Positions 6,942 to 58,579 of a stretch of 64,000 bases of DNA are shown here, piece by piece (position 1 is the stretch's first letter; each line of letters starts with the position of its first letter). The translations under genes were made by a program, and so were the position numbers. This DNA is from Dehalococcoidia bacterium (lineage in GTDB: Bacteria; Chloroflexota; Dehalococcoidia; Bin125). The stretch spans positions 800,001 through 864,000 of the forward strand of contig CAXXNO010000004.1 in NCBI GenBank assembly GCA_963663235.2, given 5' to 3'. The notes under the pieces are model-generated. The model was not told the DNA's origin. It searched no databases and worked only from the letters and a program-made list of their open reading frames with translations.

Positions 6942-7124
6942 ATGGCGTCACCGACAGATCGGATCCTATTGGCGATGCGGATCAAGCGGCATGACCCCGT
7001 GTGCGGGATGAACATCCGCCCGGCGCAGGCCGCCGGCACGTCCGAGTACCGAGGCCGGACCATCTACTTCTGCGCCGACGCGTGCAAGCAAGAGTTCGAC
7101 GCGCACCCCGAGCGATACGGCTAG
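6942..7124 (+). CDS. YHS domain protein
   Basis: DPVCGM...YRGRTIYFCADACKQEFDAHPERY; GAGGAGG RBS. Confidence 0.9.
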   Translation: MASPTDRILLAMRIKRHDPVCGMNIRPAQAAGTSEYRGRTIYFCADACKQEFDAHPERYG

Positions 7125-8269
7125 GGCTGCGCGGGGGGCTGCGCGGGGGGCTGCGCGGGCTCGAGCGCCGCGAGCACCGCGGCGAGATCATCGGGCGTGT
7201 CCTCAACCGCGCGGACGACGCCTTGGGCGTCGATGACGACGATGCGCAGCTCCAGGCGGACGGCAAAGAGAGCCGCCACGTCGTCGCGCCACTGCAGGTG
7301 CGTCGCGGGCGGGATGGTTGCGCGGGCGTCGTCGTCGAGCACCAAGACCGGCGTGTAGCCGGCCTGCTGCGCCGGCTCCGCCGTGGCGACGGCCGCAGCG
7401 CCGCAGGAACGGCAGGCCGGGGGTGCGAAGGCGATCACCAGGGGTGCGCCGCGGTTGCCGGAGAGACGCCACGTCGCCCCGGCCCGGTCCGCCCGTTCGA
7501 GGAGGAAGTCCGGCGCGGGCTGTCCGACCCGGCCGGCCGGGGCGCGGCCTTCATGATCGAGGGACGTGGGTAGCGCCTTGGGGCCCGGCAGCGGGGCGGG
7601 GCCCAGGGGCTGCGCGAGGGACGCCACCAAGGCCGCCACCTCCTGTTCGAACTCCTGGTCCGGGGCCTGGCCGACGAAGACGGACGCGATCACGCCATCG
7701 GGACGGACGAAGATGGAGTTGGGCGGGCCGATCTGGAGGTAGCGGCGGGTGACGGAGCCGCCGAAGTCCATGGGCACGGGATAGTTGATGCCGAACTCGT
7801 CGACGAAGTTCTGCGCCGGCCCACGCGCTTCCTCGATGTTGACGCCGATGATGACGAGTCCGGCCTGCCGGTGCTGCTCTTGCAGGCGGACCAGCACCGG
7901 CACCTCGCGCCGGCAGGGGCCGCACCAAGACGCCCAAAAGTTGATCAGCAGGGGATGGCCGCGCCAGTCGGAGAGGCGGAAGCGCTCGCCGTCGATGGTT
8001 TCGAGCTCAAAGTCAGGAGCGAGAGCGCCGAACTCCACGGCCACCCGCTGATCGTCCGGGTTCAGGTAGGCGGGAAAGTCGGCGAGGCCGAAGGAGCCGA
8101 CGAGGGTCGGGCCGCCACCGCTCAGCCCGAGCCAGAGGGCGGCCGCGGCGGCGCCCACCACGAGCAGCCCGACCACGAGCGTGCGCCGCCCGTGGTACTC
8201 CCGTGGTCGATTTGGGTTCTCGTCCGGGAAGGTCGCGTCGCCGGCGTCGCGCCGCTTGCGCTTCGCCAC
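7121..8269 (-). CDS. Membrane-anchored TlpA/ResA-like thiol-disulfide oxidoreductase with a second redoxin-like domain
   Basis: N-terminal TM; APDFEL...INFWASWCGPC; second domain APDFLL...CRSC. Confidence 0.85.
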   Translation of the reverse strand: MAKRKRRDAGDATFPDENPNRPREYHGRRTLVVGLLVVGAAAAALWLGLSGGGPTLVGSFGLADFPAYLNPDDQRVAVEFGALAPDFELETIDGERFRLSDWRGHPLLINFWASWCGPCRREVPVLVRLQEQHRQAGLVIIGVNIEEARGPAQNFVDEFGINYPVPMDFGGSVTRRYLQIGPPNSIFVRPDGVIASVFVGQAPDQEFEQEVAALVASLAQPLGPAPLPGPKALPTSLDHEGRAPAGRVGQPAPDFLLERADRAGATWRLSGNRGAPLVIAFAPPACRSCGAAAVATAEPAQQAGYTPVLVLDDDARATIPPATHLQWRDDVAALFAVRLELRIVVIDAQGVVRAVEDTPDDLAAVLAALEPAQPPAQPPAQP

Positions 8270-8936: not shown

Positions 8937-8990
8937 CCGCCGACGGGCGGGCGCGCATTGAGCCCCCGTCCGATTGGTGTACGCTGCGGC

Positions 8991-9220
8991 GCAGCAGGGC
9001 GCAGCAGGGCGCAGCAGGGCGCAGCAGGGCGCAGCAGGGCGCAGCAGGGCGCAGCAGGGCGCAGCAGGGCGCAGCAGGGCGCAGCAGGGCGCAGCAGGGC
9101 GCAGCAGGGCGCAGCAGGGCGCAGCAGGGCGCAGCAGGGCGCAGCAGGGCGCAGCAGGGCGCAGCAGGGCGCAGCAGGGCGCAGCAGGGCGCAGCAGGGC
9201 GCAGCAGGGCGCAGCAGGGC
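8991..9220 (+). repeat. Perfect tandem repeat, 23 x 10 bp GCAGCAGGGC
   Basis: Read directly. Lies between TTGAGC-N16-TACGCT (8958-8985) and ATG 9271. Confidence 0.97.
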
Positions 9221-9270
9221 GCAGCGGCGCGCCGGCAGCGGAGCGCGTCGGCCGGGAAAGGACCGCGAGG

Positions 9271-11061: not shown

Positions 11062-11141
11062 GCCCGGCGTCGCGAGCGAGGATCCGTCATCCGGCGCCCG
11101 GCTTGTCCGGCGCGGCTCCGACGCCGTCGGCGGAGGAACGA

Positions 11142-15266: not shown

Positions 15267-15291
15267 GCGGACGTCAGCGAGAGGCTGCGCC

Positions 15292-16239
15292 ATGCCGACG
15301 GTCCCCCGAGAAGACGAGGTCCTGGCCTATTTCGAGACACTGTCGAACTGGGGGCGGTGGGGCGCCGACGACCAACTGGGCACGCTCAACCTGGTGACGC
15401 CGGCGACGCGGCGGGAGGCGGCGGCGCTGGTGACCGAGGGGACCGCCGTCTCCTGCGCGTGGGACATCCAGTCCGTCGCGGATCCCGACCCGGCCTCCGG
15501 CCGCCCGATGCGGATCATGCTGGGGAGCGGCGAGAACCCGGCGGAGATGGAGCCGGGAGGGCGGGCGTCGTTCGCGCTGGACTTTCTCGGCGTCGCCTAT
15601 CACGGCTTCTCCGTCACGCACCTGGACGGGCTCTGCCACGCCTTTTGGGACAAGCAGATGTACAACGGCATTCCGGCGGCCAAGGTCACGGACCGCGAGG
15701 GGGCGACTGAGCTCTCCATCCACGCACTGCAAGACGGCGTGGCGACTCGCGGGGTGCTGCTGGACGTGGCCGCGCTCAAGGACACGGCGTGGCTGGAGCC
15801 GGGCGAGGCCGTCTTCCCCGAGGACCTGGAGGCGGCCGAAGATCGCCAGGGGGTCCGGGTCCAGGAAGGCGACGCCCTGTTGCTGCGAACGGGCTGGGGG
15901 CGTCGCAAGCGGGAGCCGAAGAGCAACCGCCCCTCGACCGCTGGCGCCTACCCCGGCTGGCACGCCGCCTGCCTGCCGTGGTTCCGCGAGCGGGGCGTGG
16001 CGATGATCGGCGCCGACACCGGCAACGACGCCTATCCGTCCGGATACGACAGCCTGGCGCACCCGATCCACTCGATCGGGATGGTGGCCATGGGGCTGTG
16101 GCACATCGACAACTGCGACCTGGAGGAACTGGCGAGCGCCTGCGAGCGACTCCAGCGCAGCGCGTTCCACTTCTCCCTGGCACCGCTGCGCTGGGTGGGC
16201 GCCACCGGCTGTCCCGTGAACCCCATCGCGGAGTTCTGA
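15292..16239 (+). CDS. Cyclase family metal-dependent hydrolase, paralog 2
   Basis: NWGRWGADDQLGTLN, HGFSVTHLDGLCH, GCPVNPIA. Confidence 0.88.
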   Translation: MPTVPREDEVLAYFETLSNWGRWGADDQLGTLNLVTPATRREAAALVTEGTAVSCAWDIQSVADPDPASGRPMRIMLGSGENPAEMEPGGRASFALDFLGVAYHGFSVTHLDGLCHAFWDKQMYNGIPAAKVTDREGATELSIHALQDGVATRGVLLDVAALKDTAWLEPGEAVFPEDLEAAEDRQGVRVQEGDALLLRTGWGRRKREPKSNRPSTAGAYPGWHAACLPWFRERGVAMIGADTGNDAYPSGYDSLAHPIHSIGMVAMGLWHIDNCDLEELASACERLQRSAFHFSLAPLRWVGATGCPVNPIAEF

Positions 16240-19444: not shown

Positions 19445-20842
19445 TCAGACGTCCATCGTCGGGGGGTGCGAGGGCACGGTGAGGGGGCAGCCGGTGGCGG
19501 CCAGCACCTGGTCCCCCGTCACGCCGGGGGCGATCTCACGAAGCCGCAGCCCGTCCGGGGTCACATCGATCACGGCGAGGTTCGTGACGACCGTGCGGAC
19601 ACAGCGCCGACCCGTCACGGGCAAGGTGCAGGCCTCGACGAGCCGGGGCCGCCCATCGCGGGTGGTGTGCTCCATGACCACAATCAACTCGATGCCCCCG
19701 GCGACGAGGTCCATGGCGCCGCCGACGCCGGGCGCGCCGACGTTCGGCCGGACCCAGTTGGCGAGATCGCCGTCCTGCGACACCTGGTAGCCGCCGAGCA
19801 CCACCGCGTCCAGGTGGCCGCCGCGGATCATCGTGAACGAGGTGGCGCTATCGAAGATGGCGCTGCCGGGGATGTACTCGACGGGCAGGCTGCCGGCGTC
19901 GAAGATGTTGGGGTTCCAGCGATCCAGATCGGCGAGGCTGTGGTAGCCGAGGATGCCGTTCTCGCCCTGGAGCATGACCGACGCGTCGATCCGTTCCAGC
20001 CAACGGCCAACGAGCGTCGGCAGGCCGACGCCGAGATTGACGTACTTGTAGTCCGCGATCATGCGGGCGGCGCGCAGCCCCATCTGATCGCGGGAGATGC
20101 CGGGAATGGGTGCGCCGCCGCCGGACGGGTTGCGGCGGTAGCCGCGGCCCTCGGCCACGATCTCGTCGCGGGGGAGGTCGGCCGTGACCACGCGGTCCAC
20201 AAAGATGCCCGGGAGATGAACGGCCTCGGGGTCGAGGTGGCCCGCCGGGACGATGCGATCGGCCTCGACGATGACGGTCTCGGCGGCCGTGGCCATCGCG
20301 GTCTGGAAGTTGCGCAACGGGCCCTCGAAGCGGCAGTTGCCCACCTCATCGACGACGTTTGCGCGGAGCAGGGCGAAATCGGCGGAGAGCGCCGTCGCCA
20401 GCAGATAGGGGCGGCCGTTGAATTGACGCAACTCCTTGCCCTGGGCCAGATCCGTCTCCGCCGCCGTGGGCGTGTAGAAGGCGGCGATGCCCGCGCCGGC
20501 CGCGCGGATGCGCTCCACGAACGTCCCCTGCGGCACCATCTCCACCTCGACCTCGCCGGCCAAGAACTGATCCTCGAAGGCGGTCGGGCGACCGACCTGT
20601 CCAGCGCCCGAGCCGATGAAGCGCTTGACCAGCCGTCGATCGGCCAGGAGTTGCGGCGTGAAGCGACCGTGACTCATGGAATTGGCGATGACGGTGAGGT
20701 CGCCGGCGCCGTGGTCGGCCAAGGCGTGGATGAGGCTGCTCGGCCAGGAGACCGTCTGCGAGAAGCCGCCGATCATCACCGTCATGCCGGCGCGGACGTC
20801 GGAGACGGCTTCGCGGGGGGAGGCGACGACCTTGCTCTTCAT
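19445..20842 (-). CDS. Fused alpha/beta family I CoA-transferase (3-oxoacid CoA-transferase-like)
   Basis: PQGTFVERIRAAGAGI, VHLPGIFVD, YVNLGVGLP, GENG (catalytic Glu), GGAMDL. Confidence 0.92.
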   Translation of the reverse strand: MKSKVVASPREAVSDVRAGMTVMIGGFSQTVSWPSSLIHALADHGAGDLTVIANSMSHGRFTPQLLADRRLVKRFIGSGAGQVGRPTAFEDQFLAGEVEVEMVPQGTFVERIRAAGAGIAAFYTPTAAETDLAQGKELRQFNGRPYLLATALSADFALLRANVVDEVGNCRFEGPLRNFQTAMATAAETVIVEADRIVPAGHLDPEAVHLPGIFVDRVVTADLPRDEIVAEGRGYRRNPSGGGAPIPGISRDQMGLRAARMIADYKYVNLGVGLPTLVGRWLERIDASVMLQGENGILGYHSLADLDRWNPNIFDAGSLPVEYIPGSAIFDSATSFTMIRGGHLDAVVLGGYQVSQDGDLANWVRPNVGAPGVGGAMDLVAGGIELIVVMEHTTRDGRPRLVEACTLPVTGRRCVRTVVTNLAVIDVTPDGLRLREIAPGVTGDQVLAATGCPLTVPSHPPTMDV

Positions 20843-20863
20843 GCCGGCACCGTCACGGGGAAC

Positions 20864-22264
20864 TCAGAGGTCCATCGTCGGGGGGTCGGGCGGGCCCGCC
20901 AGCGGACAGCCAGTGGCCGCCACGACCTCCTCGGCCGTCACGCCGGGGGCCAGCTCGCGGAGGCGCAGACCGTCGGATGTCACGTCGATCACAGCAAGGT
21001 TGGTCACGATCGTGTTCACGCAGCGCCGACCCGAGACCGGGAGCGCGCACTCCGTGACGATGCGAGGTTTTCCATCGCGGGTGGAGTGCTCCATCAGCGC
21101 GATGAGCTCTCTCCGGCCCGCGATCAGGTCCATTGCGCCACCGATGAGCGGTGCGCCCCTCCCCGGGCGGCTCCAGTTGGCGAGATCGCCTTGCTCCGAC
21201 ACCTCGTAGGCGCCGAGCACCACGGCGTCCAGATGGCCGCCGCGGGCCATAGCGAAAGCGGAGGCGCTATCGACGATGGCTGCGCCCGGGATGAGCTCGG
21301 CCGGCTGGCTGCCGGCGTCGAACAGGTTGGGGTTCCAGCGGTCGGGATCGGAGAGGGCGCGGTAGCCGACGATGCCGTTCTCACCGTGCAGCACCACGGA
21401 GGAGCCGAGCCGCTCCAGCCAGCGGCCGGCGAGCACGGGCAGGCCGATGCCGAGATTCACGTAGCGGTAGCCCGCGATCATGCGGGCCACGCGCAGCCCC
21501 ATCTGCTCGCGCGAGATCCCGCGCCCGGCGCCCGTCTTGCCCGACACATCGCGGGGCTGGAGGCGCGCGACATCCAAACGCTCTTCGCGAGGGATCTCCA
21601 CGGCCACGACGCGGTCGATGAAGATGCCGGGCAGGTGCACGTCCTCGGGCTCGATCTCGCCGACGGGGACGATGCGCTCCGCCTCCACGACCACGGTGGC
21701 GGCAGCGGTGGCCATCACGGTCTGGAAGTTATGGGTGGAGCCCTCAAAGTGGCAGTTGCCGATTTCGTCCACGGCGTCGGCCCAGAGCAGCGCGATATCG
21801 GCGGAGAGGGCCGCCTCCAGGAGATGGGGGCGGCCGCCGAACTCCCGGACCTCGCGGCCGTCAGAGGCGAGATCGGTATCGGCCGCCGTGGGCGTGTAGA
21901 AGGCCGGAATGCCGGCCCCGGCGGCGCGGATGCGCTCCGCGAGGGTCCCCTGGGGGACGATCTCCACTTCGATCTCGCCGGCGAGGATGCGGTCTTCAAA
22001 GGGGGTTGGGCGGGCCACCTGCGAGGCCGCGGAGCCGATGTAGCGCTTGACCAGGCCCGCCTCGGCCAGCATCTGCGGCGCATAGCGGCCGTAGCCGATG
22101 GAACAGGAGATGACGGTCAGATCGCCGGCGCCGTGGTGAACCAAGGCGTTCATCAGCGTGGTCGGCAGGGACATCGTCGGGGCGAAGCCGCCGAGCATCA
22201 CAGACATGCCGGGCCGCACGTCGGAGACGGCCTCCAGGGCCGATGCGACCACCTTGCTCTTCAT
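20864..22264 (-). CDS. Fused alpha/beta family I CoA-transferase, tandem paralog
   Basis: MKSKVVAS start at 22264 with GGAGG RBS; PQGTLAERIRA, HGENG, GGAMDL. Confidence 0.92.
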   Translation of the reverse strand: MKSKVVASALEAVSDVRPGMSVMLGGFAPTMSLPTTLMNALVHHGAGDLTVISCSIGYGRYAPQMLAEAGLVKRYIGSAASQVARPTPFEDRILAGEIEVEIVPQGTLAERIRAAGAGIPAFYTPTAADTDLASDGREVREFGGRPHLLEAALSADIALLWADAVDEIGNCHFEGSTHNFQTVMATAAATVVVEAERIVPVGEIEPEDVHLPGIFIDRVVAVEIPREERLDVARLQPRDVSGKTGAGRGISREQMGLRVARMIAGYRYVNLGIGLPVLAGRWLERLGSSVVLHGENGIVGYRALSDPDRWNPNLFDAGSQPAELIPGAAIVDSASAFAMARGGHLDAVVLGAYEVSEQGDLANWSRPGRGAPLIGGAMDLIAGRRELIALMEHSTRDGKPRIVTECALPVSGRRCVNTIVTNLAVIDVTSDGLRLRELAPGVTAEEVVAATGCPLAGPPDPPTMDL

Positions 22265-22466
22265 TCGCGCCTGCCTCCGCGGACCCGGCGCACCTGCTGC
22301 GGCGGAGCGCCGTGGAAAGGAATATCGCACGCGCGGGCGGGCGTCGCCAGCGAGCGAAGGCCGGTCGCTCCGTCTCCCACGCCGTTCCAGGCGCCCGCCA
22401 TCCGCCCGCCCCGCGAGAGCCGCGCGGGACGGTCCACGCGGAGGCCGGCAGGGCTACGATGCCGGC

Positions 22467-33195: not shown

Positions 33196-33507
33196 ATGAG
33201 TGCGGTCGACATCGCGGCGTTTTTCATTCCGCTCATCATCATCGGGATCATCTGGGTGCGGCGGGAGCACTTCCTGCGGAACAAGCTGTCGGGCGTGGCC
33301 GTGGTCGCGCTGGCAATCGTGGCGATCTTCCACTTCGACGTGGGAATGCTGACCACCGACCCCTACGACGAGTTCCTGGACAGCGTCGGCGCGCCCGGGG
33401 CGACGTGGCGGGCGTCGATCTTCGCTCTGCTGGCTCTCAGCTATTGGGGCGACCTGCGCGAGAACCTTCGCAGCGGCCGCAGGCGGTTGAGCGACTCGCG
33501 CGACTAG
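33196..33507 (+). CDS. Small hypothetical membrane protein (about 3 TM)
   Basis: Hydrophobic segments; GGAGG RBS; coding-like codon usage. Confidence 0.7.
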   Translation: MSAVDIAAFFIPLIIIGIIWVRREHFLRNKLSGVAVVALAIVAIFHFDVGMLTTDPYDEFLDSVGAPGATWRASIFALLALSYWGDLRENLRSGRRRLSDSRD

Positions 33508-34346
33508 CCGCCGGCCGCCGGGGCCTCCACGGCCGGCCTCGGCTGCGCCTCCTCGGCGCTCACGCCGGCCAGATGCGCGATGTAGATGGGGACCAGCGGC
33601 AGCACACAAGGCGAGAGGAACGACAGCACCCCGCCGGCGAAGGCGATGGCGAAACCAAAGCCGCCCGTGACGATGCCTCCTGTGGCGGAGGCATCCTGGG
33701 TGGCGCCCGGGAGGAACGCGAAGTAGTCGTTCAGCACGGTGACGCGGTCCAGGAAGATTAACACACCCATGAAGACCAGCAAGATGCCGCCCGCGACCGA
33801 GATGTAGCGGATGCGCGGCCCGAGGGCGCGGAGGAGCGCCGTGGCAGAGCCCAGCCCCGCCCCCGCGATTAAGAAAGGCACGCCCAGACCGAGGGTGTAG
33901 AACACGAGCAGCAGCGCGCCTTGCGCGACGGAGCCGGAATCCGCCGCGAGGGCCAAGATGCCGGCCAGGATCGGGCCGACGCAAGGGGTCCAGCCGACGG
34001 AAAAGGCGCCACCCACGAAGAGCGAGCGACCGTAGCGACGCAGCGCCCGGCGACTCGTCGCAGGCGCGGAGCGCGGCGACGACGCGCCGGGCGCGTCGAT
34101 CTGGTAGGTGCGGTTCAAGAAGGGGATGGTGATGATCTCGGTGAGGTGCAGCCCGAGGACGAGGAGCAAAACGCCGGCGACGCGGCTGAACCAGATGAGG
34201 TTGTCGCGGAGCGCGAAGCCGACGACCCCGATCGAGGCCCCCAGGATGATGAAGACCACGGAGAAGCCGAGGACGAACGCCAGCGCGTGCATGAACGTGG
34301 CACGCCTGGCCGGAACGAATTCCACCGGACCAGCGTGGGCGACCAT
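33504..34346 (-). CDS. ccdA: Cytochrome c biogenesis / disulfide-reduction protein CcdA, circularly permuted
   Basis: Both catalytic motifs are present, but GWTPCVGPIL comes before AFAGGVLSFLSPCVLPLVP. Start ATG 34346 with GAGGA RBS. Confidence 0.85.
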   Translation of the reverse strand: MVAHAGPVEFVPARRATFMHALAFVLGFSVVFIILGASIGVVGFALRDNLIWFSRVAGVLLLVLGLHLTEIITIPFLNRTYQIDAPGASSPRSAPATSRRALRRYGRSLFVGGAFSVGWTPCVGPILAGILALAADSGSVAQGALLLVFYTLGLGVPFLIAGAGLGSATALLRALGPRIRYISVAGGILLVFMGVLIFLDRVTVLNDYFAFLPGATQDASATGGIVTGGFGFAIAFAGGVLSFLSPCVLPLVPIYIAHLAGVSAEEAQPRPAVEAPAAGG

Positions 34347-34469
34347 CGCGTCCTCGTGGCCCTCCAGCGTGCTGGTTCCCGCCTCTGTAGAGGTTACGCC
34401 TCCCCGGCGGCCGCAGATGCGGGCCGGCGCCATCGCCACGCCATCCAGGATAGGCCACAGGATTACGTA

Positions 34470-39492: not shown

Positions 39493-40741
39493 ATGGCGGA
39501 CATCCCGAGTCGCGACGAGTTGGCGGCGCTGGACCTCCTTATCGAGGCACGAGCGCGCGGCGTCACGGCGGACGCCGGCGGGGTCAATGGCGAGATCTCG
39601 GTCCTAGCGGCTACGGCGCATGCGATCCGGGAGACAGCGGGCGTAGCGGAGCCGGACAGAGCCGCGACCTGGGCCAAGGTCCGCGCCGGGATGCGCACGG
39701 AGCCACGCCGCTCCCGGTGGGCGTGGCCCGTCCCCCTCAGCGGCCTGCGGGCCGTCGCATCGGCGGCGGCCGTGGTGCTCGTCGCGGTCCTGGCCACGGT
39801 GAGCGTGCTGCTCGTGTCGGACGGCACCGCCGAGGCGAAGTTCCTGGCCGCGGTGCGCGACCTGGATGCGTTCAGCGCGGAGGCCCTGGAAGACCAACGG
39901 ATCAGCGCCGACGAGGCCGCGCAGCTGGAAGAGCGCGTCGCGGCAGTCGCCGCGGCGCTCGAAGACGAGCGCGAGCGCATCCGCGACCTGGACCCGGCGG
40001 AATTGGGTGAAGCGCTCGCGACCGTGACTGCCGTTCGGGCCCAGTTGGGCCCGTTCGAGGAGGGAAGCGCGTCGGTGGCCCGCTCCGCCGCCACGCTGGA
40101 CGTGGTGTCTGACGCGGTGCAAGCCGTCATCGAACGAGCGGAGCCGGGGACCGATCGCGAAGAGGATGGCGACCGCCCCACTCAGCGCGACAGCGATGGC
40201 GAAGGCGGCGGCGAGCGCGGGGTGGACGACGCCCCGGACGCAGACGACGAGCAGAGTCAGCGCCCCAGCACCGATCCAACGGACGACGAGCGAGACGGCG
40301 CCGAGTCTGACGAGCGGACGCCCGCCGATGAGCCGAGCGACCGGCGCAGCAGCGACGAGGACGAGGCTCCGACGACGGATCGCGATGGCGCGGGAACCGT
40401 CGACGAGGAGGACGAGGCCCCGACTCGCGACCGCGAGGGCACCGTCGAGGAGGACGAGGCTCCCACCCGCGATCGCGAGGAAACCATCGACGAAGACGAG
40501 GCCTCCGACTCGCGACCCCGCGGGCGCCGTCGAGGAGGACGAGGTCCCGACTCGCGACCGCCGCGGGCGAGGTCCCGACTCGAGCACCGTCGAGGCGGAC
40601 GAGACCCCGACTCGCGACCGCGAGGGCACCGTCGAGGCGGACGAGCCTGCCACGCGGGACGGCGAGCGCATTCGCTGCGACGACGAGGCGGCGCACTCCC
40701 GCGGGGGAGACGACTGCGCAGCCCACGAGAGACGGCGGTAG
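39493..40741 (+). CDS. Putative membrane anti-sigma factor with an acidic repeat tail (+1 frameshift near 40504)
   Basis: About 85-aa cytoplasmic N-terminus, one TM (AVASAAAVVLVAVLATVSVLLV), a helical region, then EEDEAPTRDREGTV repeats that continue in another frame to TAG 40741. Confidence 0.65.
40354..40665 (+). repeat. Coding repeat of about 7 units of ~42 bp (EEDEAPTRDREGTV)
   Basis: Read directly; one unit is 43 bp long. Confidence 0.85.
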
Positions 40742-40746
40742 CCTGC

Positions 40747-41295
40747 ATGACTGCCCTTGCGGACCTGGTCCGTCGCGCCAAGGAGGGTAACGAAGACGCA
40801 TTCGCTGCGCTGTACAACGCGCGCGTGACCGGACTGTTCCGTTACGTCAACAGTCTGCTGCGGAATCCAACCGACGCCGAGGACGTGACCGCGCAGACGT
40901 TCATCGAAGCCTGGAAGAGCCTGCGGAAGTTGAGAGATCCGGAGCGCTTCGATGCCTGGTTGTTCCGGATCGGGCACAACCTGGCGTTGAACGAGCGCCG
41001 GCGGCGGCCCACGACGCCGCTGGAGAGCGCGCCAGAACCCGAAGACCCGAGCCCCGACAGCGAGCCGGAGTCCTTCGTCGAAGGCATGGGCGAAGCGCGC
41101 GCGGTCCGCCGCGCGCTGCTGCGTCTGCCGGATGCGATGCGGGAAGTGCTCACGCTGCGCTTCTTCGCCGGACTTAGTCACGCGGAAGTGGCCGCCCAGA
41201 TCGGGAAGTCGGAGAACAACGCCCGCGTCATGCAGTACCGGGCGCTACAGCAGATGCGCGGCCTCATCGAGGCCGAGGGCGTCCGCCTCAGCTAA
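40747..41295 (+). CDS. ECF-family RNA polymerase sigma factor
   Basis: LVRRAKEGNEDAFAALY, DAEDVTAQTFIEAW, FDAWLFRIGHN, region 4 REVLTLRFFAGLSHAEVA...RALQQMR. Confidence 0.92.
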   Translation: MTALADLVRRAKEGNEDAFAALYNARVTGLFRYVNSLLRNPTDAEDVTAQTFIEAWKSLRKLRDPERFDAWLFRIGHNLALNERRRRPTTPLESAPEPEDPSPDSEPESFVEGMGEARAVRRALLRLPDAMREVLTLRFFAGLSHAEVAAQIGKSENNARVMQYRALQQMRGLIEAEGVRLS

Positions 41296-44625: not shown

Positions 44626-45774
44626 TCATGGTCGAACGGAGCCGAGCGTACGATCGCCGGCGGTGCGGAAGTGGTCGAGCGCGCGGGGGTCCAGCCGAAC
44701 GCCGAGGCCCGGCTCCGTCGGGACCAGCATACGGCCACACTCAATGCGGAGCGGACGTCCGAGAAGGTCCGAGGCCAGCAGCCCCGCCGTGGCCAGGCCG
44801 CACGGTGGGATCTCCCCCGGCAGCGACGCCGCCAGGTGTAGCGCCGCCGCCGTCGCGACACCGCTGTCGATGGTCGTCGTGACGACAGTGCGCAGGCCCG
44901 CCTCCGCCGCTAGCAGGGCGATCTCGCGGGCGGGCTGGAGGCCGCCCAACGACATCGGCTTGAGGACGAGCACTTGTACGGCCCGGGTGTCGAGAACGCG
45001 CTGGACGGATTCGCGATCGGTGAGGCTCTCGTCGGCCGCGATGGGCACGGCGACCTGCCCGCGCACGGCGCGCAGGCCGCGGAGGTCGGCGGCGGCGACG
45101 GGCTGCTCGACCCACTCCAGGTCATAGGGCTCCAAGGAACGGATGACAGAGACCGCCTGCTCCACGCTCCAGGCGCCATTGGCATCGAGGCGGAGGGCAA
45201 CGTGCGGGCCCAAGGCATCGCGCGCGGCAGCGACCCGATCCCGCGTCGCCGCCGCGTCCCGTTCCATGCCGACCTTCAACTTCACGGCGCGATAGCCCGC
45301 ATTCCGCGCCGCCGAAGCGGCAGCGTGCACATCGACGGGACGGACGGCCCCGACGCTCGCGTTGACCGGGACCGCGGTTGCGGCAGGCGACCCCATCAGA
45401 CCCTGCGCCGCGCTCACGCCCGCCGCCCGCGCCTCGGCGTCGAGCAAGGCGACATCCAGCGCGCACGAAACCGCCGCGCGCCCCGGGCCCTGCGGCACCT
45501 CCGCTACCGCGCGCCGGGCGGCGGCTAGATCGAGGCCAAGGAGCGTCGGGGCCAAGGAGCGAACGATCCCCTCGGCGTGGGCGGCGTCGCCTTCGCCACG
45601 CTCCGGGAGCGGCGAAGCCTCCCCGAGGCCGTCGACACCGGCGTCGGTGTGGATGCGCAGGATCAGGCCCTCGCGCACGGCGGCGACACCGTCGGGTGCC
45701 CCCGCGGTGGCGAACTCCGCGACGAAGGGCAAGCGAAACGGACTCCAGCGGAGACCGATGACGCGCACGGTCAA
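44626..45774 (-). CDS. menC: o-succinylbenzoate synthase
   Basis: GLGEASPLP, KLKVG, LRLDANGAW, EQP, ADES, VLKP; directly follows menD. Confidence 0.88.
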   Translation of the reverse strand: MTVRVIGLRWSPFRLPFVAEFATAGAPDGVAAVREGLILRIHTDAGVDGLGEASPLPERGEGDAAHAEGIVRSLAPTLLGLDLAAARRAVAEVPQGPGRAAVSCALDVALLDAEARAAGVSAAQGLMGSPAATAVPVNASVGAVRPVDVHAAASAARNAGYRAVKLKVGMERDAAATRDRVAAARDALGPHVALRLDANGAWSVEQAVSVIRSLEPYDLEWVEQPVAAADLRGLRAVRGQVAVPIAADESLTDRESVQRVLDTRAVQVLVLKPMSLGGLQPAREIALLAAEAGLRTVVTTTIDSGVATAAALHLAASLPGEIPPCGLATAGLLASDLLGRPLRIECGRMLVPTEPGLGVRLDPRALDHFRTAGDRTLGSVRP

Positions 45775-47558
45775 GCCTCGACATTGCTGTGCAATGCCCC
45801 GCGCACCCGAGCGGCGACCGCCTGCCAGATCTCGCGGTGAAGCGCGGCGTTGGCCGCGCGCTCCGTCTGGACCTCGACCAGTGCCACGCCCGGCTTGCCC
45901 AAGCTCTGGGCCACGGCGTCGCGGAAGTCGGCCGCCCGCCGAACCGGGCGGTGATCGAGACCGTAGAGCGCGGCGGCGTGGCGGAAATCGAGGCCATGCG
46001 GGGTGCCAAAGAGCTGCTCGAAGTCTTCGACCTCGTCAGCCTGCGGGAGGAAGGAGAAGATGCCGCCGCCGTCGTTGTTGATCAGCACGATGGTGGCGTG
46101 AAGGTCGTGGCGCTTCACGGCGAAGAGGCCGTTGAGGTCGTGGTAGAGAGAGAGGTCCCCGATCACCAGCACGAGCGGCCCCGGGCCGGCGGCCGCCGCG
46201 CCCAGCGCCGTGGAGACCACGCCGTCGATGCCGCTGCTGCCGCGGTTGCCCAGGACTCGCAGCGCCCGCGCGCCCCCGTGATAGAAGCCGTCGAGGTCGC
46301 GGACGGGCATGCTGTTGCCAACGAAGAGCGTCGCGCCGTCCGGCAGGAGGTCCGCGAGCTCCGTGAACACCCGCGGCTCGGAGATGCCGTCATCCCGGGC
46401 AAGGAGGTCGCGCTGGACGGCTGCCGTCTCCGCCGCACAGGTCCGCCAGCGGCCGTGCCAGGCCTCGCGCCGCCCGCGGGCCGCCGGGTCAAGCGGCGGA
46501 AGCGCGGCAGTGAGCGCGTCGCAGAGGGCGCGGGCGTCGGCGTGGAGGGCGGTCGAGGCGGCGAGCGTCGGATCGTTCCAGCCTTCGCCGTCGGTAATGA
46601 GCCATTGGGGGCAGGCGGGATCATCGAGGAACTGCAAGAGCGGCTTGGAGGTGGGGGTCGCGCCGAAGCGGAGGACGAAATCCGGCCGCAGCGCCCGGGC
46701 GGTCTCCGCATCGCGGAGAAAGGCGTCGTAGCCGGCGATCACCCGAGAGCGGTCGTGGGGCCCACAACGGACCTGGGAGAGGGGATCGGCCAGCAGTGGG
46801 AGGCCGAGCGTGGCGGCCAGCCAGGCGACCGCTTGCGGAAAGTGTGGATCGGCCTGGGGCCCACAGACGATGAGTCCGCGATCGCCGGCGCTGACGTGCG
46901 CGACGGCAGCCGCGACGGCCTCCCCATCAGGCTGACCGCCGGCATGATGCACCACGGCCGATCGGGGACGCGGTGCGTCCCGATCCGCGCCAGGCGGCGC
47001 GCTGGGGATCAGCGGCTCCCGAAAGGGGAGATTGAGGTGCACCGGCCCGGCCGGCCGGGCCTCCGCGACCGCCACCGCGCGGGCCGCGGTCAGGTCCACA
47101 TAGCGGAGCATCTGCGGGGTGGCCTCCGGCAGCGCGACCTCCACGGAGCGCTTGACCATGGAGCCGAAGAGCCGGATTTGGTCGATCGTCTGATTCGCGC
47201 CGACGTCACGCAGCTCCGGGGGGCGGTCGGCGGTCAGCACGAGCAAGGGCACGCGGCCATAGCGGGCCTCCGCGACCGCCGGGGCGAAGTTGAGCGCCGC
47301 AGTGCCCGAGGTCGAGAGGAGAGCGACCGGCTTGCCGGTCGCCTTGGCGATTCCCAGCGCGAAGAAGGCCGCCGATCGCTCATCGAGATGGACCCAGACG
47401 CGGATCGCGGGGTGGCGTTGGAACTCGAGGGCCAAGGGGGTGGAGCGGGAACCGGGGCAGAGACAGACCTGGGCGATGCCGGCGCGGGCCATCGCATCGA
47501 CGAATGCGCCCACGTATCGATGCAGCACTGCGCCGGGCGCCAGATCCGGGTCGGTCAC
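45771..47558 (-). CDS. menD: SEPHCHC synthase
   Basis: CPGSRSTPLA, DERSAAFFALG, TSGTAA, ADRP, NQTIDQ, NSMPVRD, NRGSSGIDG, GDLS, NNDGGGIF. Confidence 0.97.
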   Translation of the reverse strand: MTDPDLAPGAVLHRYVGAFVDAMARAGIAQVCLCPGSRSTPLALEFQRHPAIRVWVHLDERSAAFFALGIAKATGKPVALLSTSGTAALNFAPAVAEARYGRVPLLVLTADRPPELRDVGANQTIDQIRLFGSMVKRSVEVALPEATPQMLRYVDLTAARAVAVAEARPAGPVHLNLPFREPLIPSAPPGADRDAPRPRSAVVHHAGGQPDGEAVAAAVAHVSAGDRGLIVCGPQADPHFPQAVAWLAATLGLPLLADPLSQVRCGPHDRSRVIAGYDAFLRDAETARALRPDFVLRFGATPTSKPLLQFLDDPACPQWLITDGEGWNDPTLAASTALHADARALCDALTAALPPLDPAARGRREAWHGRWRTCAAETAAVQRDLLARDDGISEPRVFTELADLLPDGATLFVGNSMPVRDLDGFYHGGARALRVLGNRGSSGIDGVVSTALGAAAAGPGPLVLVIGDLSLYHDLNGLFAVKRHDLHATIVLINNDGGGIFSFLPQADEVEDFEQLFGTPHGLDFRHAAALYGLDHRPVRRAADFRDAVAQSLGKPGVALVEVQTERAANAALHREIWQAVAARVRGALHSNVEA

Positions 47559-49015
47559 GGAGCGCCCAGCGCCCAGCGCATCGAGCGCATCTTGAGGCGG
47601 GATTCCTCGTACTCGCTCTCGGCGTCGGAGCCGGCGACAATGCCGCAGCCCGCGTACAGCGAGGCGCGGCCGCCTTCGATCAGCGCGGAGCGAATGGCCA
47701 CGACGAAGTCGCCGTTCCCGCGGGCGTCCATCCAGCCCAGCGGCCCGGCGAACCAGCCCCGGTCGAAGGGCTCGTAGTCGCGCAACAGCGGCAGAGCGCG
47801 CTCACGCGGGACACCGCCCACGGCCGGCGTGGGATGCAGCCGGTCGACGAGATCGAGCGCCGTGGAAGAGCGAGCGAGCGTGCCGCGGAGATCGGTTTGG
47901 AGGTGCTGCACGTCGGGCAGACGCAGGAGGGCCGGCTGCGGCGCCACGTCCAGTTCGATGCAGACGGGCGCGAGTGCGTCCTCAAGCGCGCGGACGACCA
48001 TCGCGTGCTCGCGACGCTCCTTGGGGTCGGCGAGCAGGGCCTGTGCCCGATCCCCATCCTCGACGGCACCGCGGCCGCGCGGAGCGGAGCCGGCGAGCGC
48101 CACCGCACGGACATCGCGACCGCGCAGCGACACCAGCAACTCCGGGGTGGCGCCGAGAAAACAGCGATCACCGTCGGCCAGCGCGAAGACGGTCCCGGCT
48201 CCGTAGCGATCGCGCAGCCGCCGGAGGACGGCGCCGCAGTCGAACGGACGGTCAGCCTCCAAGGTGGAGCGCCGGGCGAGCACCAACTTCTCGATCTCGC
48301 CACGGCTGATGGCAGCGACGATGTCGGTCACGGCCCGCCGCCATGCGTCAGGCGGCGGATCATCCAGCGCGCGCACCTGTGGCTGGGCAACATCGCTGCG
48401 GGCGGAGTCGCCGCCGACCGCGCGGGGCGGACTGCCGGAGAGGAGCTCGTCGACGCGGCAGAGGAGCGGCCCTGGATCTTGCAAGGGGCCGTCCGGCACC
48501 ACCTGGACCTGCACCTGCAAGGAGCAGGCATCGCCGCGGCGGAGCGCCAGCAGGGTGGGAACGACGAGCCAGCCGCGAGGCCAGCCGCTCCAGGTGGCGT
48601 CCGGCGGACGGGCAGGGTCAAACGCCGATCCGCTCAGACAGAGCGGATCCAGGCCGGGCTCAGAACCCGCCGGCTCAACGCAGGCGTCCGCGGCCAGCGC
48701 GCGCCAGGCCGCAGCCATGGAGCCAGGCTCCGGCAGCGGCGCCACGCCGTCGCTGCGGAACTCCGCGCTCGCGCCGACGGCGGCCATCTCGAGGGGCGGG
48801 TCTTGTCGCCGCCAATAGGCGCGTCGATCGCCGGCGGCGCGTTCGAAGATCTCCATCGGTTCGATGGGGGAGAGGGGCACGCTCAGGCTGACCAGCACAG
48901 GCCGGGACGTCCGCGCGGCGCGCTCCGCGGCCGAGTGAATGAGGGCGGGCAAGCGCCGGCCCAGGGTGGCGGGGCCAGGGCCTCGATCTCGCAGGGTCGC
49001 TGGATGTGCTGGCAT
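47555..49015 (-). CDS. menF: Isochorismate synthase
   Basis: KLVLAR, GATPELL, ALAGS, KERREH, LHPTPAVGG, DRGWFAG, YAGCGIV; start placed at ATG 49015. Confidence 0.92.
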   Translation of the reverse strand: MPAHPATLRDRGPGPATLGRRLPALIHSAAERAARTSRPVLVSLSVPLSPIEPMEIFERAAGDRRAYWRRQDPPLEMAAVGASAEFRSDGVAPLPEPGSMAAAWRALAADACVEPAGSEPGLDPLCLSGSAFDPARPPDATWSGWPRGWLVVPTLLALRRGDACSLQVQVQVVPDGPLQDPGPLLCRVDELLSGSPPRAVGGDSARSDVAQPQVRALDDPPPDAWRRAVTDIVAAISRGEIEKLVLARRSTLEADRPFDCGAVLRRLRDRYGAGTVFALADGDRCFLGATPELLVSLRGRDVRAVALAGSAPRGRGAVEDGDRAQALLADPKERREHAMVVRALEDALAPVCIELDVAPQPALLRLPDVQHLQTDLRGTLARSSTALDLVDRLHPTPAVGGVPRERALPLLRDYEPFDRGWFAGPLGWMDARGNGDFVVAIRSALIEGGRASLYAGCGIVAGSDAESEYEESRLKMRSMRWALGAP

Positions 49016-49027
49016 GGCAGAGACGAG

Positions 49028-49049
49028 AAACCGACTCACCAGTCGGTTT
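49028..49049. promoter_or_regulatory. Putative TetR operator AAACCGAC-N6-GTCGGTTT upstream of menF
   Basis: Palindrome with 9-bp arms; same motif at 58558-58579; minus-strand TAGCGT hexamer at 49054-49059. Confidence 0.8.
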
Positions 49050-49134
49050 TGCCACGCTATCAGACGGCCCGGAGCCCACAAGAGGAGGGCAAAAGAGGGC
49101 CAACGAGGGGGCGCCCAGAAGGGTGGGGGCGAGG

Positions 49135-49281
49135 TTAGCGAGGCCGACGCATCGTCACCCGCTGAAAGGCGCGCGCCCGGCGCGCCCGCTGCCGCTTCTT
49201 CCGCCAATCCGCCACGGCCATCGCCGGGTAGAGAACCGATGCGACCGCCACAACGCCGATGCCGATCAACGCTTCCGCCAT
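49135..49281 (-). CDS. 48-aa small single-TM protein with a basic tail
   Basis: MAEALIGIGVVAVASVLYPAMAVADWRKKRQRARRARAFQRVTMRRPR. ATG lies 3 nt after the nfi stop; GAAGGGA RBS-like sequence; below the ORF-track size cutoff. Confidence 0.6.
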   Translation of the reverse strand: MAEALIGIGVVAVASVLYPAMAVADWRKKRQRARRARAFQRVTMRRPR

Positions 49282-49284
49282 GAG

Positions 49285-50001
49285 TCAGCGATCCCTTCCA
49301 CCAATCCGTCCGTGCGGCGGGTGTCCCGTGACGCTGCGGGCCGAGCGGGCGGCCTGCCGCGCCAGGCGGATCGGCGCCGGTGTGCGGGCCGCGCCCGAGA
49401 GAGCGCGCACCACGGTGACGGCGGTCTCCGCGTCCGTGCGCCAAGCGGCGTGTACGGCCAACGGCCGACGGCCCTGCCGCACGCAGAGCCAGCAGCCAAC
49501 TAGATCCCCCAGCAGCCGGAGGGCACTCGTGGCACCGGGCTCATCGGCCGGGGGAGCGCCCTCCGCAAGCAACGGACGATCGGTCACTCCGATCGTCGGC
49601 AGATCGAGCACGGATCCTAAGTGCAGCGCCAATCCGGCGCGGCGGGGATGGTCGCGGCCGGTGGCGTTTACGAGCACGAGGTCCGGCCGCTCCGGCAGCG
49701 CGCGAACGGCCGCCTCCAGCAGAGCGCCCTCCCGCAGCGCCAGAAAGCCGGGGCGGTAGGGGAAGCCCGCGGAACCCGGCACCACGCGCGTGACCAGCGC
49801 GTGACCGTCCAACAGCAGCGCCGCGGCGGCCCAGGCTCGATCGCCGCGTGCGCCGTCGCCCGCGATGCCCCGCTGAAAGCAGACGAAGACACCGGCCCCG
49901 CGCAGCGGCCCCGCCGCGGGCTGCCAGAGGTCAAGGCGCGCGCGGCCGAGATCCGTCTGCAGGCGCAGCAGGCCAGCGTCCGACTGCGGCCAGGTCGCCA
50001 C
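49285..50001 (-). CDS. nfi: Endonuclease V-like protein (atypical catalytic residues)
   Basis: FPYRPGFLALREG, G..HPRRAGLALHLG, PTIGV, P.PIRLA. Confidence 0.82.
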   Translation of the reverse strand: MATWPQSDAGLLRLQTDLGRARLDLWQPAAGPLRGAGVFVCFQRGIAGDGARGDRAWAAAALLLDGHALVTRVVPGSAGFPYRPGFLALREGALLEAAVRALPERPDLVLVNATGRDHPRRAGLALHLGSVLDLPTIGVTDRPLLAEGAPPADEPGATSALRLLGDLVGCWLCVRQGRRPLAVHAAWRTDAETAVTVVRALSGAARTPAPIRLARQAARSARSVTGHPPHGRIGGRDR

Positions 50002-50065
50002 GGCCTCAGGCTATACTCAGCCGCGCCCACAGGCCCCGTCTCCCGCCCGCGAAAGGAGCACGCCG

Positions 50066-50833
50066 ATGCCGGTTCCCGGCGAAGTCACCGATTTGGGGCG
50101 AGTCCAGACAGAGGAGATCCGCTACCCGAGCGAGGACACCGCGATCGAGGCGTACGTGGCGCGCCCGCGTGAGGCCGGCGCGAAGCCGGGGATCATCGTG
50201 ATCCACGAGGCGTTCGGCCCGGTCGAGCACATCCGCGACGTCGCCCGCCGGTTCGCCAACATCGGCTTCACGGCGATCGCCCCGAACCTCTACACGCGCG
50301 AGGGCGCGCCGGACCCCAAGGACATGAACTCCGTCTTCCCGAAGATGTTCGGCCGGCCGGACGCTGAAGTCGTTCGCGACCTGGAGGCAGCGGCCGCGTA
50401 CCTCCGCAGCCAGCCGGACAGCAACGGCAAGGTCGGCTGTATCGGCTTCTGCTCCGGGGGGCGGCAGACGCTCCTCTTCGCCTGTTCCAGCGCGACCGTG
50501 GACGCGGCGGTTGATTGCTGGGGCGGATTCATCAGCCGGGCGACGCAGGAGGACCAGACGACGGCCGCGCGGCCGACGCCGATCATCGACCTCAGCGAGC
50601 AGTTGCACTGCCCGCTCTACGCCGTGATCGGTGAGGAGGACGAGAACCCATCGCCAACCGAGGCGGCGGAGTTGGAGCGGCGGCTGAAGGACGCGGGCAA
50701 GACGTTCCAGGTCGAAGTATTCACCGATGCGGGACACGCGTTCCTGGCCGACTACCGCCCGTCCTATCGGGAGGGGCCGGCGCTCAAGCTCTGGCCGAAG
50801 ATCGTGGCGTTCTTGGAGACGCAGCTACGCTGA
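50066..50833 (+). CDS. Dienelactone hydrolase family protein
   Basis: IHEAFG, GFCSGG, AGHAF; AAAGGAG RBS. Confidence 0.9.
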   Translation: MPVPGEVTDLGRVQTEEIRYPSEDTAIEAYVARPREAGAKPGIIVIHEAFGPVEHIRDVARRFANIGFTAIAPNLYTREGAPDPKDMNSVFPKMFGRPDAEVVRDLEAAAAYLRSQPDSNGKVGCIGFCSGGRQTLLFACSSATVDAAVDCWGGFISRATQEDQTTAARPTPIIDLSEQLHCPLYAVIGEEDENPSPTEAAELERRLKDAGKTFQVEVFTDAGHAFLADYRPSYREGPALKLWPKIVAFLETQLR

Positions 50834-50849
50834 TCCCGGCGTCGCCGGG

Positions 50850-51236
50850 CTATTCCGCCGGCCCGGCGAGAGGGCGCGCGAAGCTGAGCTCGTGGCCGTC
50901 GGGATCAGTGATATGGAAGTAACGCTCGCCCCACTCGGCATCGCGCGGGGCGGTGTCGGGCGTGAGGCCGGCGGCGATGGCCCGCTGGTGGAACGCGTCC
51001 ACGTCTGAGACGTAGAAGATCACACGGCCCCACCACGCCCAGCGACGACTCGCGGGCTGCGCCGTGAGGTTCAGGTAGCCCTGTTCCAGAGCGAAGCTGG
51101 TGAACGAAGCGCGCTCGTCGCCGTAGAGGAGCGCGAATCCCAAGGCGCGATAGAAGTGCACCGCGCGCGCCATGTCATGGGTGGCGAGCGTGAGCGCGCT
51201 GATGCAGTCGATGGTCGGGGCGGGCTCGGGGGTCAC
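50850..51236 (-). CDS. VOC/glyoxalase family protein
   Basis: AVHFYRALGF, WGERYFHITDPDGHELSF. Confidence 0.9.
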   Translation of the reverse strand: MTPEPAPTIDCISALTLATHDMARAVHFYRALGFALLYGDERASFTSFALEQGYLNLTAQPASRRWAWWGRVIFYVSDVDAFHQRAIAAGLTPDTAPRDAEWGERYFHITDPDGHELSFARPLAGPAE

Positions 51237-51308
51237 GCGCGGATGATAGGCGATGGCCGTAGCAGCGTGATCGCCGGACCGGACGTACTGAGCCGGGCAG
51301 CGCCTTCG

Positions 51309-51995
51309 TCAGGCGCCATCGCTCTCCCGTTCGGCGGCGCGGCGGAGGATCTCCATGCAGCGCGCGTCCGGCACCGGGGGGAACTGTTCATAGAAGGCGC
51401 CTACCGCGCCGAACGGGCTCGGGGTGGCGATCACGATCACGCGTGCGCCCATCTGCTCCAGGCGGTGCACGGCCTCCTCGGCGGCAACCGGCACCGCGAC
51501 CAGCACAGCCGCCGCGCCGGCACGCTGCGTCGCGTCCACGGCGGCCGCCATCGTGGCGCCGGTGGCGAGGCCGTCGTCGACGAGGAGGACGCGGCGGTCG
51601 CGCACCGGCTCGGCCGGCCGCGCGTCGCGATAGTCGCGCTCGCGTCGCTCCACCTCGTCCAGCTCGCGGCGTCGCGCCGCCTCCAGGTCGGCGGGACTGA
51701 GGTCGAACATGGCCAGGAAGTCGTCGTTCCAGATCGTGCCCAGGCGGGTGACAGAGCCGACGGCCAGCTCCGGGGAGCCCGGCGCGCCAATCTTGCGCGC
51801 GATCAGCGCATCGAGCGGCAAGCACAGCCCTTGGGCGACCGGCTCGGCGACCTCCAGCCCGCCGCGGGGGATGGTGAGGATGAGGTCCGCCCGCACGTGC
51901 AGGCTGCGGAGCAGGTCCAAGAGCCGTCGGCCCGCGTCCAGGCGATCGCGGAAGCGGACCGGCTCAGAGCGCCGAGGGATGAAGCGACTGAGCAT
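51309..51995 (-). CDS. Phosphoribosyltransferase family protein
   Basis: FRDRLDAGRRL, IPRGG, RKIGAP, VDDGLATG PRPP loop, VGAFY; GGGGAGG RBS. Confidence 0.88.
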   Translation of the reverse strand: MLSRFIPRRSEPVRFRDRLDAGRRLLDLLRSLHVRADLILTIPRGGLEVAEPVAQGLCLPLDALIARKIGAPGSPELAVGSVTRLGTIWNDDFLAMFDLSPADLEAARRRELDEVERRERDYRDARPAEPVRDRRVLLVDDGLATGATMAAAVDATQRAGAAAVLVAVPVAAEEAVHRLEQMGARVIVIATPSPFGAVGAFYEQFPPVPDARCMEILRRAAERESDGA

Positions 51996-52148
51996 CCACG
52001 CCTCCCCATGCCAGCCCTGGAAGAATCGCACGCCGGCGCGCCCTGTGCGCGAGCGAATCAACTAGAACGGCCACAAATAAGGTCGGGAGCGGATGTGTGG
52101 GCCAGCGGTGCATGGATAGCTTGAGCGTGAGACTCGGAACGATCCGGC

Positions 52149-54596: not shown

Positions 54597-54641
54597 GGGG
54601 CGCTCCCTTCCGTGCCGCACCGGCATGGCCCGGCGCTTATT

Positions 54642-56174: not shown

Positions 56175-56178
56175 GCGG

Positions 56179-57084: not shown

Positions 57085-57092
57085 CGGGCGGA

Positions 57093-57911: not shown

Positions 57912-57929
57912 AGGCCGTTCCTTTGCCCC

Positions 57930-58547: not shown

Positions 58548-58557
58548 GGATGTGCAA

Positions 58558-58579
58558 AAACCGACTGAGCCGTCGGTTT
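58558..58579. promoter_or_regulatory. Putative TetR operator AAACCGAC-N6-GTCGGTTT between tetR and menG
   Basis: Palindrome; flanked by overlapping -10-like hexamers, TAGCGT (minus, 58585-58590) and TACGCT (plus, 58584-58589). Confidence 0.8.

Follow-up and report, generated by a model that had tools for sequence, protein, structure and literature searches.

A CcdA-type membrane protein with its first helix at the C-terminus, and signs of recurrent circular permutation in the CcdA family

We analysed a 64,000-nucleotide stretch of contig CAXXNO010000004.1 (positions 800,001 to 864,000 of the forward strand) from assembly GCA_963663235.2 of a Dehalococcoidia bacterium; this whole stretch is called the window below. 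On its minus strand, at 33504..34346, lies a coding sequence for a CcdA-like membrane protein of 280 amino acids (aa; stop codon at 33504-33506), in which the transmembrane helices, numbered TM1 to TM6 as in canonical CcdA, occur in the order TM2-TM3-TM4-TM5-TM6-linker-TM1. The longest frame of the same open reading frame (ORF), 33504..34439 on the minus strand, begins with GTG and comprises 311 aa, and the ATG at 34346 is internal to it. This ATG is the likelier start, because the homologues are about 279 aa long and begin 15-25 residues ahead of an RR motif, because GAGGA 4 nucleotides (nt) and GGAGG 14 nt upstream resemble a Shine-Dalgarno sequence, and because 123 nt then separate ccdA from the divergent gene that starts at 34470, compared with about 30 nt if the GTG is used. 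The in-frame extension up to the GTG (34347..34439, minus strand) spans 31 codons with neither a hydrophobic segment nor a match to a model of TM1, and is probably a 5′ leader rather than coding sequence. The ccdA frame is open throughout, and its G+C content at third codon positions (0.88) is typical for the real genes of the window.

Three segment models were built, for TM1 (s1), TM2-3 (s23) and TM4-6 (s456), and the window was scanned with them in all six frames. The only ORF matched was 33504-34439, in the segment order TM2-3, then TM4-6, then TM1, and no second ccdA-like gene was found. The TM2-TM3 block (34116..34307, minus strand, residues 14-77) scored 108.7 bits with s23 at scanned-ORF residues 56-119; it is preceded by a cytoplasmic N-terminal tail with the RR motif, and the AlphaFold2 (AF2) model described below places helices at residues 14-46 and 50-68. 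The TM4-TM5-TM6 block (33714..34034, minus strand, residues 105-211) contains the motif GWTPCVGP, scored 164.3 bits with s456 at scanned-ORF residues 147-253, and was modelled as helices 98-137, 140-163 and 165-198. Its cysteine is Cys122 of 280 (Cys153 of the 311-aa frame), encoded by TGC at 33981..33983 on the minus strand (gca on the plus strand). The relocated TM1 block (33558..33665, minus strand, residues 228-263) carries the SFLSPCVLPLVP motif, scored 69.2 bits with s1 at scanned-ORF residues 270-305, and was modelled as two helices, 229-243 and 251-266, interrupted at the SPC motif. Its cysteine is Cys247 of 280 (Cys278 of the 311-aa frame), encoded by TGT at 33606..33608 on the minus strand (aca on the plus strand).

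The order swap is also evident against known CcdA proteins. When all chains of the PDB were searched with phmmer, the best match was Thermus thermophilus CcdA (5vkv_A, E 1.9e-23), in two order-swapped stretches: query residues 45-241, which include the TM2-TM3 block, matched chain residues 36-211 (TM2-TM6; 60.0 bits, independent E value (i-E) 2.3e-15), and query residues 263-293 matched chain residues 5-35 (TM1; 27.5 bits, i-E 1.7e-5). The Pfam family DsbD_TM (PF02683) matched with 59.7 bits (cut-off 27.1), likewise in two stretches, of which the main one extends over profile positions 41-214 of 219, and DsbD_2 matched with 43.3 bits (cut-off 24.9). For comparison, a canonical relative, P0123, gave a single DsbD_TM stretch, with residues 10-230 aligned to profile positions 6-216. 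An earlier note on this DNA, made from the sequence alone and called the original prediction below, had proposed that TM1 has moved to the C-terminus in one continuous frame with both cysteines intact, and had expected split, order-swapped profile matches; both points hold. The strings it quoted are all present in the translation in the order it gave, with RRATFMHALAFVLGFSVVF near the N-terminus, GWTPCVGPIL in mid-chain and GFGFAIAFAGGVLSFLSPCVLPLVPIYIAHLAG near the C-terminus. An upstream TM1 in frame, which it had named as a refuting case, was found neither in the window scan nor in the stop-to-stop frame (ending at 34472), where the 42 residues before the ATG contain no match to the TM1 model.

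The new junction and the new termini also resemble parts of canonical CcdA. The nearest canonical relatives are P0123, P0125 and P0126; over the shared blocks, P0123 and P0125 have 55-57% identity with the window protein. The TM6-TM1 linker (33666..33713, minus strand; the gap between the s456 and s1 matches) is predicted to be extracytoplasmic and looks like a C-terminal tail of canonical type (LN.YF.F) joined to an N-terminal head of canonical type (G.FGFA.AF..G), as seen at the termini of P0123. Its length is put at about 16-30 residues. Among 138 proteins with the same order, the linker between TM4-6 and TM1 is 10 to 31 residues long (median 19.5). The acidic C-terminal tail (33507..33557, minus strand), predicted to be cytoplasmic, is the counterpart of the first half of the TM1-TM2 loop of the ancestral protein (HLAGVSAEEAQ...), as a comparison with the TM1-TM2 loops of P0123 and of P0122, which is described below, shows, and contains three Asp or Glu and one Lys or Arg in residues 265-280. 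Together with the new N-terminal tail (...RRATFMHA), it matches the two halves of the canonical TM1-TM2 loop. The six helices fall into two three-helix repeats: the AF2 model has six long helices, with which the hydropathy peaks agree, and in family members the TM4-6 model also matches the TM1-3 region weakly (about 10-25 bits).

In a large lineage made up mainly of Chloroflexota, the window's order is fixed. When a large database was searched, 7094 of the 8000 candidates scored were proteins with E ≤ 1e-3, and the 120 homologues listed from this search were analysed. The TM4 motif lies ahead of the TM1 motif in all 120 (54-96% identity), and the segment order s23-s456-s1 was found in 121 of 121 when the query is counted. 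These homologues come from ENA, JGI, NCBI and Logan assemblies, several of them on contigs of 2.4-4.9 Mb, and where they are named, they are named as Chloroflexi or Chloroflexota CcdA. In the scan of named genomes (one genome per species; 590 stretches, of which 80 loci were listed), 74 of the listed loci are canonical, one has TM2-6 only and five have the window's order, a count that gives no estimate of frequency. The five comprise two chromosomes of Dehalococcoidia metagenome-assembled genomes (MAGs; 53-56% identity), one Chloroflexi, one Anaerolineae and one MAG labelled uncultured archaeon. Independent genomes with the same order, which the original prediction had called for, therefore exist. 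In an alignment of 22 diverse same-order proteins (A1; 33-71% identity to the window protein), neither the two cysteines nor the prolines of their motifs (S-P-C-x-L-P in TM1 and W-T-P-C-x-G-P in TM4) vary in any of the 22 rows.

A HMMER search of the whole library gave 8095 matches at E ≤ 1e-3, from which we took the best 150 representatives of 50%-identity clusters, ranked by similarity to the permuted query. The canonical order 1-2-3-4-5-6 accounts for 116 of these, the window's order 2-3-4-5-6-1 for 18 and a further order, 4-5-6-1-2-3, for five; the other 11 are incomplete (six with TM2-6 only, three with TM4-6 and TM1, one with TM4-6 only and one with TM1 and TM4-6). A CcdA-like ORF with TM2-TM6 only was also seen at one listed locus (L004:7977-8582 and 8563-9183), where the ORF contains no TM1 block, has a canonical C-terminal tail at its end and overlaps with a TlpA-like redoxin gene at the start of the latter. 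Such TM2-TM6-only forms, at this locus and among the six representatives, may be fragments, frameshifts or genuine five-helix forms.

The order 4-5-6-1-2-3 defines a second permuted form, in which the two three-helix repeats are swapped; it is represented by the P0122 family and is absent from the window. In P0122, the DsbD_TM profile positions 7-102 match residues 156-252, and DsbD_2 positions 119-197 match residues 26-114. This order is present in 120 of the 120 best P0122 homologues (64-100% identity), which are named, where named, as CcdA of Chloroflexi or Dehalococcoidia; over the shared blocks, P0122 and the window protein have 56% identity. Its AF2 model (alignment A2) had a mean predicted local distance difference test score (pLDDT) of 70.4, and Foldseek ranked 5vkv 21st (E 1.3, TM-score 0.34 on the target), a comparison that says little, because the aligner is sequential and the halves of the protein are swapped. 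Like the window protein, P0122 belongs to the CcdA family, has the external TM6-TM1 junction, is cut in a cytoplasmic loop and is predicted to have its termini inside; unlike the window protein, which is cut between TM1 and TM2, it is cut between TM3 and TM4, at the boundary of the three-helix repeats.

A maximum-likelihood tree of 153 proteins was calculated from the three blocks concatenated in canonical order, with the linkers excluded (203 columns). The window protein falls inside an all-permuted clade of 12 (Shimodaira-Hasegawa-like approximate likelihood ratio test, 96), and the other proteins with its order are scattered among canonical ones; the order label needs 16 changes on this tree, at least three of them forced by starred branches. 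Pairwise identities show the same scatter: P0182 is 64% identical to canonical P0161 compared with 57% to its best permuted match, and L007 is 58% identical to canonical P0270 compared with 48% to its best permuted match. An approximately unbiased (AU) test on 47 rows (21 same-order, four second-order and 22 canonical), a subset picked after the large tree had been seen and from which the long-branch P0198 was left out, rejected a single clade of same-order proteins (log-likelihood difference 219.6, p-AU 0.0002), and on the tree of these 47 rows at least six order changes are forced by starred branches. These trees are quick ones, based on short and divergent membrane sequences, and they are unrooted, so that the direction of change cannot be read from them. 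They suggest repeated independent permutation, or reversion, within the CcdA family. The original prediction's claim of a permutation stands; what it did not notice is that at least two permuted orders exist in the family and that permutation appears to have recurred. A more general proposal, to which we give a little less than an even chance, is that the CcdA fold is a hotspot of recurrent natural permutation, where the orders 1-2-3-4-5-6, 2-3-4-5-6-1 and 4-5-6-1-2-3 would have interconverted at least several times, with cuts in cytoplasmic loops flipping the termini to the inside and the fold and redox function being kept.

The distribution of charge is in line with a conserved helix orientation. 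Thirteen Lys and Arg residues lie in the segments predicted to be inside (N-terminal tail, two; TM3-TM4 loop, seven; TM5-TM6 loop, three; C-terminal tail, one) and two in those predicted to be outside (one in the TM2-TM3 loop and one in the TM6-TM1 linker, residues 200-224). The termini of canonical CcdA are placed outside the cell because in DsbD and ScsB the homologous membrane core has periplasmic domains before and after it, as stated in a DsbD-superfamily survey (PMC3322552), and because many canonical CcdA relatives among the listed proteins have a thioredoxin or redoxin domain fused to one end or the other. If the cytoplasmic TM1-TM2 loop is cut and the old termini are joined outside, both new termini would lie inside, and the window protein is accordingly predicted from its sequence to have both termini in the cytoplasm with every helix orientation kept. 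In agreement with this prediction, terminal extensions of more than 60 aa were found in 24 of 116 canonical proteins and in none of 23 permuted ones (18 same-order and five second-order; Fisher p=0.014), a comparison of small numbers drawn from a list ranked by similarity to a permuted query.

The AF2 model of the window protein, calculated from the 22-sequence alignment, had a mean pLDDT of 79.2 and a predicted template-modelling score of 0.75, and shows six long helices, the last of which is broken at the SPC motif. Foldseek placed 5vkv first among PDB entries (probability 1.00, E 2.9e-2, TM-score 0.52 on the target over 208 columns), the next entry having a probability of 0.25. This match to a predicted structure supports a CcdA fold for TM2-TM6 only.

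The closest neighbours of ccdA in the window are a convergent hydrophobic ORF of 103 aa (33196-33507), a divergent family-2 glycosyltransferase gene (from 34470) and a DUF2064 gene. The end of the 33196-33507 ORF overlaps the ccdA stop codon by 3 nt, and this ORF has no family match at E≤0.01. At the two closest loci (L001 and L002), ccdA is accompanied by a convergent Na+/H+ exchanger gene and unrelated enzymes, with no redox neighbour. The distant same-order ccdA of the MAG labelled uncultured archaeon (L005, 7381-9801) lies between a thioredoxin-like gene and a Redoxin+Thioredoxin_10 gene, which is a classical CcdA operon context. In the window, a candidate acceptor is encoded 26 kb from ccdA at 7121..8269 on the minus strand: a two-domain TlpA-like redoxin (AhpC-TSA 101.8 bits in two stretches, Redoxin 92.2 bits) that is anchored in the membrane at its N-terminus and has WCGPC in one domain and CRSC in the second. 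It is plausible that the permuted CcdA feeds this protein, as the original prediction had suggested.

On the basis of these data, we consider it highly probable that the product of the gene is a functional transmembrane thiol:disulfide electron transporter of the CcdA type with a circularly permuted chain, and the order swap together with its conservation in independent assemblies supports a natural circular permutation of CcdA, as had been predicted. In the DsbD and ScsB core, two essential cysteines pass electrons on from thioredoxin in the cytoplasm to a thioredoxin-like module in the periplasm, according to the same survey (PMC3322552). By membership of this family, the function would be unchanged by the permutation: the folded six-helix core is presumably the same, the redox pair would consist of Cys122 (TM4) and Cys247 (TM1), thioredoxin in the cytoplasm would reduce this pair, and the reduced pair would then reduce an extracytoplasmic thioredoxin-like protein of the ResA/TlpA type. 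As to its origin, a canonical ccdA may have been duplicated in tandem and fused in frame, with subsequent loss of the first TM1 and of everything beyond the second TM1. Such duplication, fusion and trimming appears the likeliest route, because the linker resembles a C-terminal tail plus an N-terminal head and the new termini resemble the halves of the TM1-TM2 loop.

Several observations weigh against this interpretation. The cut-offs of NCBIfam models were not reached, the matches being partial (TsoB, 34.3 bits versus 805; DsbD PRK00293, 27.7 versus 330), and the Foldseek match to 5vkv is modest (rmsd, the root-mean-square deviation, 8.4 Å at the E value given above) and sequential, so that the packing of TM1 cannot be read from it. 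No cytochrome c maturation gene of System II (ResB/CcsB, ResC/CcsA or ResA/TlpA-like) and no thioredoxin-like gene adjoins ccdA in the window, L001 or L002. Nor was a tandem-fused CcdA-CcdA intermediate found: there is no full-coverage match longer than 360 aa in the best 150 representatives, and none of 17 proteins of 491-2000 aa is two-copy or permuted (14 have single canonical cores, most with Pfam domains of the thioredoxin or redoxin fold, one has TM1 and TM4-6 and two have TM4-6 only), a search that is itself weak evidence. The window is moreover a single sequence, and a chimeric contig, or two adjacent ccdA fragments called in one frame, could imitate a permutation. We give this almost no credence, since the same segment order and junction recur in 120 of 120 listed homologue clusters from four sources of assemblies, including multi-megabase contigs, and the permuted order is also found on the two Dehalococcoidia chromosomes; the frame is open and coding-like. 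The recurrence of one junction in independent assemblies makes a misassembly untenable. The gene might also be what is left of a tandem ccdA duplication in decay, a pseudogene without function that only looks permuted; this is conceivable given that duplication and fusion is the likely origin, and the lack of adjoining partner genes fits it. This reading is nevertheless very improbable: each of the six helices occurs exactly once with no leftover fragments, the cysteines and motif prolines are invariant down to 33% identity, the lineage is large (120 listed clusters at 54-96% identity), and the AF2 model is confident.

It is just as improbable, in our judgement, that the protein is a five-helix CcdA core that acquired an unrelated cysteine-bearing C-terminal helix by convergence, with no true permutation. 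Short hydrophobic matches can arise from composition, and CcdA-like forms with TM2-6 and no TM1 do occur (the six representatives and L004). Yet the C-terminal helix matches residues 5-35 of the 5vkv chain (i-E 1.7e-5), the full TM1 signature (SF.SPC.LP..P) is invariant or nearly so across A1, and the linker keeps the canonical motifs of C-terminal tail and N-terminal head, as described above. More weight, if still the lesser share, goes to a true permutation with the same chemistry and a role other than cytochrome c maturation, such as general envelope thiol repair or the maturation of another exported redox enzyme; the cytoplasmic termini of the permuted protein might even bind a different electron donor. 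CcdA-class proteins work through thioredoxin-like partners, and the wider DsbD family serves cytochrome c biogenesis, disulfide isomerization and sulfenic acid reduction, as the survey states (PMC3322552). The absence of ResB/CcsA or ResA-like neighbours in the window, L001 and L002 would agree with such a role, as would the cut in the TM1-TM2 loop, which changes the protein on its cytoplasmic side and gives rise to an acidic tail that is conserved. Against this, nothing in the data tells one acceptor from another, and the homologue names that mention cytochrome c biogenesis are automatic.

Compared with known systems, the permuted CcdA described here is closest to canonical CcdA (5vkv), the top PDB match both by sequence and by structure, with which it shares the Pfam families DsbD_TM and DsbD_2, the six helices and the cysteine motifs of TM1 and TM4. 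It differs from canonical CcdA in the order TM2-3-4-5-6-1, in termini that are predicted to be cytoplasmic rather than external, in the severed TM1-TM2 loop and in the new external TM6-TM1 linker. The beta domains of DsbD and ScsB and the CcdA-redoxin fusions (P0393-P0397) have a homologous membrane core, but they keep the canonical order and external termini that bear periplasmic domains; as both predicted termini of the permuted form are inside, it could not carry an external domain by such a terminal fusion. The nearest precedent that we found is the pair DsbB and VKOR, for which a circular permutation of a four-helix membrane thiol oxidoreductase has been proposed and attributed to duplication and deletion (PMC4555120). 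That case links two anciently diverged families and was inferred mainly from structure, whereas here the permuted and canonical versions belong to one Pfam family, and the change is apparently repeated.

No description of a permuted CcdA or DsbD was found in the full texts searched, which does not mean that none has ever been published. No word beginning with 'permut' occurs in the DsbD-superfamily survey (PMC3322552) or in a paper on the LysE superfamily (PMC4608589). Literature matches for 'circularly permuted' together with 'CcdA' were unrelated papers, judging by their titles and the openings of their abstracts. The proteins themselves are already in databases, labelled plainly as CcdA.

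Natural circular permutations of alpha-helical membrane proteins have rarely been documented, and the present case is unusual in that the permuted and canonical versions are more than 50% identical, that each permuted order is kept in large lineages and that the change seems to have been repeated. If the hotspot proposal is correct, CcdA would provide the first case of a polytopic membrane enzyme in which circular permutation has evolved repeatedly within one family, and a natural experiment showing that the final fold is not set by the order of helix insertion into the membrane. The permuted protein makes several questions testable: whether the order of co-translational insertion matters, given that TM1, which holds half of the active site, is made last rather than first; whether the TM1-TM2 loop is needed for the docking of thioredoxin; and why both cuts lie in cytoplasmic loops. 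There is also a practical consequence, in that linear profile models split a permuted CcdA into two partial matches and automatic annotation misses the rearrangement. Topology-based inferences, for example on sites for fused domains, would fail for such a protein.

Elsewhere in the window, an apparent menaquinone biosynthesis cluster, judged by Pfam families only, extends over 44626-59399. It includes an MR_MLE enolase (44626-45774), a thiamine pyrophosphate (TPP) enzyme (45771-47558), a chorismate-binding enzyme (47555-49444), an AMP-binding ligase (54642-56174), a UbiA prenyltransferase (56179-57084), an enoyl-CoA hydratase family protein (57093-57911) and a UbiE methyltransferase (58647-59399). 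Three tandem pairs of paralogues lie at 8974-12932, 14322-16239 and 19445-22330; the pairs consist of two Hydantoinase_B genes, with an overlap of about 200 nt between their longest frames, two putative cyclase genes and two CoA-transferase genes. Finally, in a 600-aa frame at 39493-41295, sigma-70 regions 2 and 4 are confined to the last 160 residues, and about 440 residues upstream of them are unassigned; the frame could be either an over-long ORF call in DNA of 70% G+C or that of a sigma factor extended considerably at its N-terminus.

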